Assembly: GCF_036507355.1 (NCBI RefSeq) | Contig: NZ_AP027877.1 | Strand: one strand, 5' to 3' | From: Escherichia coli | GTDB taxonomy: Bacteria > Pseudomonadota > Gammaproteobacteria > Enterobacterales > Enterobacteriaceae | Length of the DNA stretch: 64,000 bases | Shown: piece after piece, positions 55,701 through 61,476 of the stretch | Numbering within the stretch: position 1 is the first letter of the stretch | Layout: each line of letters begins with the position of its first letter | Program-made: the position numbers

Positions 55701-58700
55701 ATCAGGAGATCCTGAAAAACGAGCTGGCAGAGAAAGAGAAAAATCTGGCCTTGTTGCTGGACTCTGTAGCGAACGATAAAGCTGCCCTGATTGCGAAATC
55801 TCGCGATACCTTTATTCGTCTGCTGAACGCCACCCCGAACGGTGTGATCCGCAATTCCGACGTGGCAAAAGGTGTGGTCGAAACCTCCCTGAACGTCGGT
55901 GTGGTGACCATGACTGACAATAACGTAGAAATTCACTGCCTGATCCGTTCTCTGATCGACAGCGGTAAAGACTACGTGGTGAGCATGCTGGATTCGCTGG
56001 GTAAACTGGCTGGCGCGAAAACCGAAGCGAAAGGCGCATATCCTGGCTGGCAGCCGGACGCTAATTCTCCGGTGATGCATCTGGTACGTGAAACCTATCA
56101 GCGCCTGTTCAACAAGACGCCGAACATCCAGATTATCCACGCGGGCCTGGAATGTGGTCTGTTCAAAAAACCGTATCCGGAAATGGACATGGTTTCTATC
56201 GGGCCAACAATCACCGGTCCACACTCTCCGGATGAGCAAGTTCACATCGAAAGCGTAGGTCATTACTGGACACTGCTGACTGAACTGCTGAAAGAAATTC
56301 CGGCGAAGTAATTATTTGATTTGCTGCCGGATGGCGTTTAATCGCCTTCCGGCAGTTTCATCCTTCATTATCCTTCGATAAAAGCCATCCCTGTGAACGT
56401 TCGTCGCGGGTTGCCACGTTCAATCTGGTGATGGAACATTCGCCGCTGCGATTTCAGCGCCGCGCTATTTTCCTGTTGCTGCTGCCCCAGCTTCCAGGCA
56501 ATCAGCAATCGCGCCAGCCGTTTGTTAGCATGCTGGCTGCGCTCTGACTGAACCTTCACGCTAATACCGGATGCCAGATGCGTGGCGCGTACCGCCGAGT
56601 CGGTTTTATTGACATGTTGACCGCCCGGCCCCGACGAACGCAGCGTCTCATAACGGATTGCATCCGATTGTTCCTGCTCATCAGCGGTAAAACGCCCAAT
56701 GCCCAGAAACCAGTTTTTGCGCCCATGATGAGGCCGATACGGACTCGGACAAATCCACTGAATAGTGCCGCACCAACTTTCGCTTAATGCCCATGCGTTA
56801 TCGCCATCCAGAGAAATCAGCGCCGAACGCAGCGTGTCAGAGTAGCGGCCTGTTTCTGTTTCCAGCACCGTTACCGCGACGTCTTGTCGGGTAAAAACGA
56901 CCAACAGAGAAGAACGCTGCGCCAATCGGGTAGCCGCGTCCGGGGTGTAAATCTGGCATCCCCACTACGCGCTGCATGTTGGGTAAATTTGCCGTGGTGT
57001 GTAATTGTTGGATCGCTAAACTCTCGATCCACAGGTCATCAGATGCGATAATAAATACCGCATCGGATAAGGGACGAATATATTTGCCCATGTACCATTC
57101 CATTTATACTCGTCATACTTCAAGTTGCATGTACTGCGACTGCGTTCGTTCACCCCAGTCACTTACTTATGTAAGCTCCTGGGGATTCACTCGCTTGTCG
57201 CCTTCCTGCAACTCGAATTATTTAGAGTATATAAATATAAAAATCAGGAAATGGCAGACGAATCCAGGGCAAGAAAAAAAGAATTAATCCTGGAAAGATC
57301 TGCAAAGAGTCATTGATAAAGGATTTGTCATGATTTACCTCCTTGCAGTTTGTGGAATAAGAAAACGCGCACATACCAGGCGGGCGTTATTTTCATTGCA
57401 AGCTGGATTTAATGTTGCGGTTTATATCGCATATAAAAATTAGTAAACCAAGCTCCACGGCATTCAACGCGCTGCTGCTTAACTGTCTGAAAACCATAAC
57501 GTTCAAAAAAGGGTTTTGCGGTTATGCTGGCGTCCACCGTAAGTTCGGATTCAGACTTAATCAAAGGTTTTAACAAAGCGCTGGCAACCCCACGGCGGGT
57601 GTATTCAGGGTCAACAAATAACATATCGATATAATGTTCAATGCGGGAAATAAAACCAACCGGTTGTGCATTAATGACTGCAACCCGCACTTGTGATTTC
57701 GCGAGTTTCTCCTTCCAGCGAGATTCGTCAATCTGCGCCCAGGCGGCAATTTGTTGTGGTGAATAATGCTGACTGGCGGTCATCGTAACCGCTCTAATGA
57801 AAATAGCGCATAGTTGCTGAAAATCGCCAGGCTGATAGTTTCTTATTTGTATGTTATTCATAATCCCAACACCAGTTGTCTTTCCATTTGCGGGTCAAGC
57901 AACGTCACGTGCAGCCCCACCAGACGCACACCTCGCCCGCCGCGGCGTTCATCCCAGGTTTTACGCGCGGTGGCGATTAAGTCAGCTTTATTCAGCCGCG
58001 GCCAGACGTGCTCCTGAGTGGTTTGCTGAAAATCGTCGAACTTTAATTTCACTCCCTGGCGAGCAATCAGTAAATCAGGTTTTACCTTTGCCAGACGGCG
58101 TTCAAGTTCCGGATACAGCCGCTCGATAATCGCTTCACATTCAGACCAGTGATGAATATCTTCCGCCATCGTGCGTTCCACGCCGACGGATTTTCGTAAC
58201 CGTTCGCTGTTAACGTCGCGCTCGTCAATCCCCTGACTACGCTCCCACAAAATGCGGCCAAATTTGCCAAAGCGTTTAAGCAGAATCACCAGATCACACT
58301 TTTGTACATCACCGCAGGTCCGCAGCCCCATCGCTTCCAGCTTTGCCGCTGAGACTTTGCCAACACCGGGAATTTTTGCCAGCGGTAAGGTTTGCAGAAA
58401 TGCCGGAACTTCTGCCGGCGTAATCACAAACTGGCCGTTGGGTTTATTCATGTCGGAGGCGATTTTGGCGAGAAACTTTACTGGTGCCACGCCCGCAGAC
58501 GCCGTCAGTTGCAGCTCGCTGAAAATCGTCTGGCGGATTTCCTGGGCGATGAGGGTCGCAGAACCGTGGCAATGGACGCTATCGGTGACATCGAGATAAG
58601 CCTCATCCAGTGACAACGGTTCAATGCGCGAGGTGTAGCGCGAGAAGATTTCACGGATATGATTTGAGGCTTCTTTGTAGGCGTCAAAGCGCCCCGGAAG

Positions 58701-61476
58701 CAAGGTGAGATGTGGGCATAATTTGAGCGCCATCCCTGTCGGCATAGCGCTGCGTACGCCAAATTTACGCGCGGGATAATTGGCGGTGCTGATCACCCCC
58801 CGACGTTCGCGGCTGCCGCCAATAGCAATAGGGATATCGCGCAGGGCGGGATTGTCGCGCATCTCCACTGCGGCGAAAAAGCAGTCCATATCCACATGAA
58901 TGATTTTACGCATTACTCACCTCTCAACACTGGTAAAGTATACAGTGATTTCAGGGTTTGAGAAATGCGTAAAGATTCAGCATTTAGCGCGTTCGCTGCG
59001 AAAGCACCTGCTGCTTATCCAGCTTTTGCACCAGCGGCTGCACCACTTTATCCCCATGCTGACCAAAGTATTGATACAGCGTATCGGACGCACTTTTGGT
59101 CAGCACCATAATCTCAATACGCCGATTGCCCGCGCTTTGCGGATTTTTGGCATCCAGCAGCATCTGGTCCGCCATTGCGCTTACCTGCATCACTTTATCT
59201 TCCGGCATTCCGGCCTCTTCCAGCACCCGACGAGCTGAAAGCGCGCGATCGCCCGAAAGGTTCCAGTTGTTGTAGATATTGTTTTTGTAGGCCATCGCAT
59301 CGGTATGCCCGGTAATAATAATTTTGTTATCGAGCGAGTCGAACACTGGCGCGAGCTCCACCAGCAAAGTTTTAAAGAACGGCATAATCTGCGCGCTGCC
59401 GCGTTCGAACATATTGCGATTCTGGTCGTCTTTAATCAGCACGCGTAATCCCTGCGGGACAATCTCCATCTCCAGATTCGCTTCCATATGCGCATCACGG
59501 GCAATGGTGTTGATACTGGTTGCCAACTCGCCAAGCTCGGTGGCGGATTTCTTCTTCAGCAGCGCCGTTTTCTCATTCACATCACGCGCTTTTTTCTCCG
59601 TCTCTTCCGGCACCGCCACGGTGGCAGGTTTTGGCGGATGAGACGGGCTGATTTTATTTAACGGCGACAGCCCACCACCGTTAAAAATCGACTGCCCGTG
59701 CAGCGCGGCGATAATGCTTTCACGCTCGGATTTACTGACGCTGTTGACAATCAACTTTATCGTCGTCACCAAAGGGGCCGAGCGTATTTCCGAGGTTTCT
59801 GCCCGCTTTACCCTGGACGCGATGCCCGGCAAGCAGATGGCGATTGACGCCGATCTTAACGCCGGGTTGATCAACCAGGCACAGGCGCAAACCCGGCGTA
59901 AAGATGTTGCCAGCGAGGCCGATTTCTACGGCGCGATGGACGGGGCATCGAAGTTTGTGCGCGGGGATGCCATCGCCGGGATGATGATTCTGGCGATCAA
60001 CCTAATCGGCGGCGTCTGTATCGGCATCTTTAAATACAACCTGAGCGCCGACGCCGCCTTCCAGCAATATGTGCTGATGACCATCGGCGATGGGCTGGTG
60101 GCGCAGATCCCTTCCCTACTGCTCTCCACCGCGGCGGCGATTATCGTCACCCGCGTCAGCGACAACGGCGATATCGCCCATGACGTGCGCCACCAACTGC
60201 TGGCAAGCCCGACGGTGCTCTACACCGCCACTGGGATCATGTTTGTGCTGGCGGTGGTGCCAGGAATGCCGCACCTGCCGTTTTTGCTGTTCAGCGCCCT
60301 GCTTGGCTTTACCGGCTGGCGGATGAGCAAACGCCCGCAGGCGGCGGAGGCGGAGGAGAAAAGCCTCGAAACGCTAACCCGCACCATCACCGAAACCAGC
60401 GAGCAACAGGTCAGTTGGGAAACCATTCCGCTGATCGAGCCCATCAGTTTAAGCCTCGGCTTCAAGCTGGTGGCGCTGGTCGATAAAGCGCAGGGTAACC
60501 CGCTCACCCAGAGGATTCGCGGCGTGCGGCAGGTGATTTCCGACGGCAACGGCGTGCTGCTGCCGGAGATCCGCATTCGGGAAAACTTCCGTCTCAAGCC
60601 GAGCCAGTACGCCATTTTCATCAACGGCATTAAGGCTGATGAAGCGGATATTCCGGCGGATAAACTGATGGCCCTGCCCTCCAGCGAAACCTACGGCGAG
60701 ATTGACGGCGTGCTGGGGAACGACCCGGCGTACGGGATGCCAGTGACCTGGATCCAGGCGGCGCAGAAAGCGAAGGCGCTGAATATGGGGTATCAGGTGA
60801 TCGACAGCGCCAGCGTGATTGCCACCCATGTGAACAAGATTGTCCGCAGCTATATTCCTGATTTGTTTAACTATGATGACATCACGCAGTTGCATAACCG
60901 TTTGTCGTCGATGGCACCGCGCCTGGCGGAGGATTTAAGCGCGGCGCTCAATTACAGCCAATTGCTGAAAGTGTACCGGGCGCTGCTGACCGAAGGCGTT
61001 TCCCTGCGCGATATCGTCACCATCGCCACCGTGCTGGTCGCAAGTAGCACGGTGACCAAAGATCATATTCTGCTGGCAGCTGATGTGCGCCTGGCACTGC
61101 GGCGCAGCATTACCCATCCGTTCGTTCGCAAGCAGGAGCTGACGGTGTATACGCTGAATAATGAGCTGGAAAATCTGCTGACCAACGTGGTGAATCAGGC
61201 GCAACAGGGCGGGAAAGTGATGCTCGACAGCGTGCCGGTCGACCCGAATATGCTCAACCAGTTCCAGAACACGATGCCGCAGGTAAAAGAGCAGATGAAA
61301 GCGGCGGGGAAAGACCCGGTGCTGCTGGTGCCGCCGCAGCTTCGCCCTTTGCTGGCGCGCTATGCGAGATTGTTTGCGCCGGGGCTGCATGTGCTGTCGT
61401 ATAACGAAGTGCCGGATGAGCTGGAGTTGAAGATAATGGGGGCGCTGATGTAGGTATCCGGCATCGGTGCACAACC

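Follow-up and report, generated by a model that had tools for sequence, protein, structure and literature searches.

Architecture of the dinB–yafP locus

The window, the whole 64-kb stretch of Escherichia coli DNA that was analyzed, carries on its minus strand a promoter-like site with a LexA box, followed by dinB and yafP, with the two reading frames intact (ORF list and NCBIfam). The features of the locus, in the direction of transcription, are as follows.

58937–58964, minus strand: dinB promoter-like site, with −35 TTCTCA, a 16-nt spacer and −10 TATACT (consensus scan)
58930–58945, minus strand: LexA (SOS) box, CTGTATACTTTACCAG (direct reading and pattern scan)
57858–58913, minus strand: dinB, DNA polymerase IV, 351 amino acids, intact (ORF list)
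57858–57864, minus strand: dinB/yafP junction ATTATGA, whose last four nucleotides, ATGA, are 57861–57858 (BLAST and operon comparison)
57409–57861, minus strand: yafP, GNAT-family N-acetyltransferase, 150 amino acids, intact (ORF list)

The ATGA of the junction (TCAT on the plus strand) combines the TGA stop codon of dinB with the ATG start codon of yafP, the overlap that distinguishes the two-gene dinB–yafP allele, and the coordinates of the two ORFs confirm the direct abutment described in the first-pass annotation. That annotation also held that yafN and yafO are absent, with no room for them, and this is borne out by the ORF overlap, by a 759-bp gap relative to K-12 and by a tblastn search of the whole 64-kb window with K-12 YafN and YafO, which gave no match. 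Adjacent genes for a PhdYeFM-type antitoxin and a YafO toxin, which define the YafN–YafO type II toxin-antitoxin (TA) system, are likewise not found in the window. The locus is thus very probably the dinB operon of E. coli in its common two-gene form, in which a LexA-repressed promoter precedes dinB–yafP without yafN–yafO.

Both proteins gave full-length matches, above cutoff, to curated equivalog models. DinB matches the NCBIfam model for DNA polymerase IV (NF002677) over residues 1–345 with 545 bits (cutoff 256), placing it with the Y-family DinB polymerases; it differs from K-12 DinB at two residues (99.4% amino acid identity) and is identical to the DinB of E. coli HS (DPO4_ECOHS). YafP matches the YafP-type GNAT N-acetyltransferase model (NF007338) over profile positions 1–150 of 150 with 327 bits (cutoff 146), differs from K-12 YafP at three residues, and is already recorded as an exact protein in Escherichia, with its homologues bearing the Pfam domains Acetyltransf_10/7/1.

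The LexA box is separated from the dinB ATG by 16 nt and contains the −10-like TATACT, so that a CTG-N10-CAG-type box overlaps the promoter, as is characteristic of the LexA regulon. The pattern CTGTAT-N6-MCAG has this single match in the window, where 0.14 would be expected. The box is identical to that of K-12 dinB, was given as the dinB LexA motif in earlier work (PMC3009722), and is unchanged in 21 of 21 Escherichia operons compared; the only change in the promoter sequence relative to K-12 is a single base immediately 5′ of the ATG. Induction by DNA damage has been published for K-12 dinB (PMC2814082) and for a YafP-YFP fusion in the two-gene strain CFT073 (PMC3105422). Identity of the box to that of K-12 supports the view that the operon of the window would still be under SOS control. 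The first-pass statement that the “shortened” operon is still SOS-controlled is therefore supported as regards control, but “shortened” presumes a loss, and the direction of the change is disputed in the literature.

Comparison with the four-gene operon and distribution of the two alleles

The annotated gene order in K-12 MG1655 is dinB, yafN, yafO, yafP, which verifies the intervening position that the first reading had given for the toxin-antitoxin genes; the adjacency of dinB and yafP in K-12 that would have spoken against this reading is not observed, as the two genes are 755 nt apart there, whereas in the window they overlap. Studies of this four-gene operon include McKenzie et al. 2003, Singletary et al. 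2009 and Christensen-Dalsgaard et al. 2010 (PMC2814082). BLAST alignment of the window with K-12 MG1655 revealed a clean 759-bp gap precisely at the dinB/yafP junction, where the alignments on the two sides share a 7-nt overlap. The 759 additional bases of K-12, bearing a YafN-autoregulated promoter, yafN and yafO, are flanked by a 7-nt direct repeat, ATTATGA, and all nine of the four-gene operons examined have this repeat twice, once at each end of the segment. The junction of the two-gene E. coli operons examined is GGGATTATGAAT. The K-12 operon (PMC2814082) otherwise has its promoter, LexA box, dinB and yafP in common with the window (98.0% and 98.5% nucleotide identity), as well as its neighbors, namely the lafU and lfhA remnants, the rtcB and prfH remnants, and pepD. 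The YafN-autoregulated promoter, located upstream of yafN, is a second promoter of the K-12 operon, and SOS induction of yafNO comes from the dinB promoter only (PMC2814082). IS1 fragments are present in the window. These fragments and a best E. coli match of only 98.9% raised the possibility of a Shigella origin, but this is not supported, as DinB is identical to that of E. coli HS and the exact YafP is recorded from Escherichia.

In a survey of 5426 complete E. coli genomes, the direct dinB–yafP junction was found in 2566 (∼47%) and yafNO in 2847. According to Gutierrez et al. 2011 (NAR 39:4192; PMC3105422), 40–50% of strains have the ATGA-fused two-gene operon, and the arrangement is thus already known, being neither rare nor new. 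In CFT073, one of these two-gene strains, both mitomycin C and stationary phase induced a YafP-YFP fusion, and yafP had a strong phenotype (PMC3105422); UTI89 has been cited as another (PMC7167474). The operons of CFT073 and other natural isolates have the same genes, order and 4-nt ATGA overlap as the window and share the 16-nt core of its LexA box, with differences limited to allelic SNPs, and the junction of the B2 strains Nissle 1917 and E2348/69, GGGATTATGAATAAC, is identical to that of the window. A comparable case, differing in genes and locus, is provided by relA–mazEF–mazG and relA–mazG, where another chromosomal TA pair lies between two operon cistrons in a strain-dependent manner and strains without mazEF keep an undisturbed bicistron (PMC7167474).

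The two-gene and four-gene alleles of E. coli interleave in the dinB, yafP and junction trees. The allele of the window is itself a mosaic, with dinB positions 395–879 resembling O157:H7 and the last 75 nt of dinB having five clustered sites in common with the two-gene strain 33F4. Its flanks are closest to the four-gene allele of O157:H7 (19 differences in 1509 nt), with the B2 alleles at 62–81 differences. The interleaving and the mosaic structure are evidence for recombination between backgrounds.

Deletion or insertion of yafN–yafO

Both directions of change have been argued, deletion by Gutierrez et al. 2011 (PMC3105422) and insertion of the TA pair, without analysis, in a 2020 review (PMC7167474). 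On balance we favor deletion as the probable origin of the two-gene allele, which would have arisen from a four-gene ancestor by precise removal of the 759-bp cassette between its two ATTATGA repeats and would then have spread among E. coli backgrounds by homologous recombination. The repeats required for such an event are present on both sides of the cassette in all of the four-gene operons examined, and in Escherichia sp. E1V33 yafO alone has been removed, at a different microhomology (TTAT). Moreover, two further lineages of deep divergence have yafNO directly behind dinB, as dinB–yafN–yafO(–yafP) with an identical left boundary (TGA|TGTATAC). The divergence of YafN/YafO in those two lineages (83–85% and 74–75% at the amino acid level) is comparable in size to that of DinB and PepD, which argues that the cassette is old at the dinB site.

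The alternative, which we consider less likely, is that the two-gene operon is the ancestral enterobacterial form from which nothing was lost, and that a mobile yafN–yafO module inserted into it, duplicating ATTATGA, with the alleles since exchanged by recombination. The two-gene junction is duplicated perfectly, over 7 nt, at the boundaries of the cassette, and a repeat placed so exactly that deletion brings back both reading frames would be an unlikely coincidence unless it was made by insertion. In E. marmotae, Citrobacter amalonaticus, Kluyvera and four other relatives, with YafP 55–75% identical, dinB and yafP were found only in tight adjacency (−4 to +5 nt) and without yafNO, a pattern that an ancestral two-gene operon explains no less well. 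Outgroups sampled by YafP therefore indicate a two-gene ancestor, but those sampled by YafO indicate old dinB–yafNO operons in two other lineages; the YafP search of genome contigs returned five loci, from close relatives only, with E. fergusonii and E. albertii not among them, and E. fergusonii has been reported as four-gene (PMC3105422). The module is mobile, since YafO-family pairs occupy unrelated contexts in the chromosomes of Klebsiella and Pectobacteriaceae and on plasmids. Finally, yafO has ∼5 times fewer synonymous differences than its neighbors, which could reflect a recent spread of the cassette, although yafN, at 0.13, matches yafP in synonymous divergence.

The ends of the cassette and the sequence around the junction speak against insertion. 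Transposon-like ends were considered for the K-12 cassette, and inspection of its boundary sequences and ends found no terminal inverted repeats and no recombinase associated with it. SNPs located 11 nt ahead of the junction and 20 nt beyond it are each found with both architectures; such four-gamete violations within 20 nt on either side would need repeated insertion at the same site, and recurrent deletion at the repeat accounts for them more readily. If insertion were nevertheless true, the window would never have had yafNO or would have recombined back, rather than having lost it, and yafNO would be a long-lived presence/absence polymorphism common to several species, reversing the scenario of Gutierrez et al. 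2011.

Expression of yafP and significance of the locus

In the two-gene allele, one mRNA from the LexA-repressed promoter would encode both proteins, DNA polymerase IV (Pol IV) and YafP. Reading of the sequence in front of the yafP ATG revealed no canonical Shine-Dalgarno, only GGTG and GGGA upstream. Because, in addition, the start codon overlaps the dinB stop, YafP is most likely produced by translational coupling, with ribosomes that end at the dinB stop restarting there, and its output would consequently be tied to that of Pol IV. Gutierrez et al. read the overlap as needing “frameshifting” (PMC3105422), which counts against coupling. With the YafN-autoregulated promoter missing, the allele would also be without the SOS-independent transcription of yafP that starts from it.

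The same two features, the lack of a canonical Shine-Dalgarno beyond GGTG and GGGA and the loss of the internal yafN promoter, could be taken to mean that yafP is silent in the two-gene allele, an untranslated and decaying gene with neither a Shine-Dalgarno nor a promoter of its own. This is very improbable, since in CFT073, which has this architecture, YafP-YFP is made and responds to SOS induction and yafP has its strong phenotype (PMC3105422), the ORF of the window is intact with a full-length NCBIfam score, and the tight dinB–yafP junction is conserved across genera. An artefact of assembly or a deletion made in the laboratory came into question solely because the best E. coli match over 57300–59000 is only 98.9% identical and comes from strains with yafNO. 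Such an origin of the junction is refuted by its frequency among genomes, since thousands of independently sequenced complete genomes have the region at 98–99% identity, and by the intact frames and the exact DinB and YafP proteins recorded from many other contigs.

Beyond correct annotation the relevance of the allele is slight. Strains that carry it are without one SOS-induced mRNA interferase, YafO. Their yafP would be expressed solely along with dinB, in line with the published proposal that Pol IV counteracts cytotoxic lesions generated by YafP. The locus is a natural example of a TA pair that lies within, or is missing from, a functional operon, and the direction of the change, whether a loss, a gain or a recurrent exact excision at the 7-nt repeat, is of modest interest for the evolution of TA systems.

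dinB-yafP operon: structure and expression

The operon is encoded on the minus strand and consists of a single LexA box and promoter followed by two intact, overlapping genes, with no internal promoter region:

58945..58930, minus strand: LexA box CTGTATACTTTACCAG, a 16-mer located 16 nt from the dinB ATG and overlapping a −10-like TATACT
58913..57858, minus strand: dinB, intact 351-aa ORF (NCBIfam DNA polymerase IV, NF002677; 545 bits against a cutoff of 256)
57861..57409, minus strand: yafP, intact 150-aa ORF (NCBIfam YafP-type GNAT acetyltransferase, NF007338; 327 bits against a cutoff of 146, over the full profile length)

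The direct abutment of dinB and yafP described in the first-pass annotation was confirmed, with the four bases ATGA at 57861..57858 common to the TGA of dinB and the ATG of yafP. The LexA box that it placed ahead of dinB is present, and is identical to the K-12 dinB motif tabulated in PMC3009722. It is the sole match to CTGTAT-N6-MCAG within the 64-kb window (0.14 expected) and is invariant in 21/21 operons from the fifteen E. coli and other Escherichia compared. Relative to the K-12 proteins, DinB differs at 2 residues and YafP at 3. The 90%-identity YafP cluster (cluster 1) also lists two 132-aa proteins labelled YafO (P0174 and P0180), which probably reflects an artefact of clustering or naming in the protein collection.

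The annotated gene order in MG1655 is dinB, yafN, yafO, yafP, as the first-pass annotation had stated, and not the dinB-yafP adjacency that would have refuted its reading; its claim that yafN and yafO are missing here also holds, as tblastn with K-12 YafN and YafO gave no match anywhere in the 64 kb. Alignment with MG1655 produced two blocks (98.0% and about 98.6% identity), and 759 K-12 bases lie between them. These blocks overlap by 7 nt, and the K-12 yafN-yafO cassette is therefore bounded by a direct repeat, ATTATGA; its boundaries fall between GGGATTATGA and TGTATAC on the left and between TTTATATTATGA and ATAAC on the right.

Unlike the K-12 operon, the window allele encodes neither the mRNA interferase YafO nor its antitoxin. 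SOS induction of K-12 yafNO occurs only from the dinB promoter (Christensen-Dalsgaard et al., PMC2814082), and YafN exerts autoregulation at a second promoter, which lies upstream of yafN (PMC2814082). The window allele, with no internal promoter region, also lacks the SOS-independent, YafN-controlled transcription that enters yafP in K-12. In the two-gene strain CFT073, used experimentally by Gutierrez et al. (PMC3105422), YafP synthesis from the same architecture is SOS-inducible and occurs in stationary phase: induction of a YafP-YFP fusion was shown with mitomycin C and also in stationary phase. Only GGTG and GGGA precede the yafP ATG, and the absence of a canonical Shine-Dalgarno sequence, together with the ATGA overlap, points to termination-reinitiation coupling, by which YafP would be made only while DinB is translated. 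Gutierrez et al. (PMC3105422) called the overlap 'frameshifting'; no frameshift is needed for YafP, since yafP has its own ATG.

Neighboring features

Several gene remnants, partial IS1 copies and a tRNA gene also lie in the window:

56368-57103, minus strand: rtcB-prfH remnants, an 88-aa N-terminal RtcB fragment overlapping a PrfH ORF without about the first 30 profile positions
58984..59874, minus strand: lafU remnant, divergent from and overlapping the lfhA remnant
59714..61453, plus strand: FlhA-like lfhA remnant, whose start corresponds roughly to FlhA profile position 114
25293-25636, 30574-30929 and 43995-44350: three partial IS1 copies, each the left end and InsA reading frame
48400-48475: tRNA-Thr(CGT)

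The rtcB-prfH remnants resemble the K-12 pseudogenes ykfJ and prfH; intact 379-aa RtcB and 204-aa PrfH are found at this position in Nissle 1917, E2348/69, E. marmotae and several outgroups. Similarly, lafU and lfhA are annotated pseudogenes at the same position in K-12. The remnants at 58984-61453 are presumably the scar of a lateral-flagella (Flag-2) gene cluster deletion; motA/motB-like genes persist upstream of dinB in E. marmotae. Two of the IS1 copies are direct and 100% identical, the third being inverted and 92% identical. The sequence upstream of the tRNA shares little synteny with the E. coli genomes that match best, suggesting an island at thrW.

Distribution of the two arrangements and origin of the window allele

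Gutierrez et al. (PMC3105422) reported the two-gene operon with its ATGA fusion in 40–50% of strains, with phylogroup A mostly four-gene, B1 two-gene, and B2 and D mixed. The survey across strains that the first-pass annotation had proposed used a 101-nt probe across the junction (coverage ≥80%) and 5426 complete E. coli genomes. The two-gene junction was found in 2566 of these and the K-12 yafNO segment in 2847, adding up to almost exactly the 5416 genomes in which the locus is present, a roughly 47:53 polymorphism. Approximately 16 genomes match <80% of the yafNO probe.

Both arrangements extend beyond typical E. coli. Four genes are present in E. whittamii and in SCPM-O-B-8794, a divergent E. 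coli strain; Escherichia sp. MOD1-EC7003 and E. marmotae (junction GGGGTTATGAATAAC) carry the two-gene form and share its overlap. A third architecture, dinB-yafN-yafP, occurs in Escherichia sp. E1V33 (L002:3621-4001), where yafO was separately deleted at a TTAT microhomology, leaving an orphan antitoxin gene. E. coli GF43 (H80) has this architecture too. Toxin decay is also seen in strain PK8275, whose yafO has an internal stop, and in strain MINF_8D (H56), where IS1 has inserted into the gene.

The two-gene allele probably arose by repeated precise deletion at the repeat, with recombinational spread. ATTATGA flanks the cassette at both ends in all four-gene operons compared, and Gutierrez et al. 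(PMC3105422) inferred at least three deletions, with ATGA sequences recombining, on the grounds that E. fergusonii carries the four-gene form. One lineage with YafO homologues has the order nqrM-dinB-yafN-yafO-yafP-pepD and the K-12 left boundary, TGA followed by TGTATAC (identity to K-12: YafO 85%, YafN 83.5%, DinB 91.5%); a second has dinB-yafN-yafO-pepD without yafP (YafO 74%).

It is less likely, though credible, that the ancestral operon had two genes and that later insertion of the cassette created the 7-nt duplication; the review of Fraikin et al. (2020, PMC7167474) sees the toxin-antitoxin pair as inserted. YafO relatives at 63–69% in Klebsiella and Pectobacteriaceae lie in unrelated gene contexts, and plasmid-borne YafO-family genes are only 32–37% identical. 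For every one of the more distant YafP homologues, at 55–75% identity (Citrobacter amalonaticus, Kluyvera and metagenomic lineages), dinB directly precedes yafP, separated from it by +1 to +5 nt, and yafNO is absent. Tight dinB-yafP adjacency is thus old and widespread, and the position of yafNO 3′ of dinB is also old.

Across the comparison loci (L001, L003, L005, L007 and L015–L019), synonymous differences are about fivefold fewer in yafO than in the neighboring genes (mean dS 0.043, compared with 0.200 for dinB, 0.133 for yafN and 0.138 for yafP); between K-12 and E. whittamii yafO has 3 in ∼84 sites (p = 2.7e-5 by Fisher test relative to the flanks). Recent spread of a toxin allele or synonymous-site constraint could account for this.

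The two-gene and four-gene alleles interleave in trees of dinB, yafP and the junction ±300. Each of the SNPs located 11 nt upstream of the junction and 20 nt downstream of it is found with both architectures. The window allele is nearest overall to the four-gene allele of O157:H7 (19 differences in 1509 nt), its nearest two-gene allele being that of strain 33F4 (31 in 1509 nt). It matches O157:H7 over dinB 395-879, but within the final 75 nt of the gene shares with 33F4 five clustered sites that differ from O157:H7. This mosaic suggests recombination, and not a new deletion in an O157-like allele, as the source of the junction region. Both DinB and YafP have exact matches on record, and E. coli HS carries the identical DinB. 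The 1.7 kb at 57300-59000 has no match at ≥99% among the 5426 genomes (best 98.9%, from O157:H7 strains carrying yafNO), and the mosaic allele is not represented as such among these complete genomes.

The two-gene arrangement is real, was correctly read at first pass, and is an ordinary, well-documented allele; with the publications of Gutierrez et al. and Fraikin et al., the literature already contains the finding as well as the two views of its origin. The additions made here are small: a repeat of 7 rather than 4 nt, a frequency brought up to date with 5426 genomes, the mosaic make-up of the window allele, and the cross-genus distribution of both forms.
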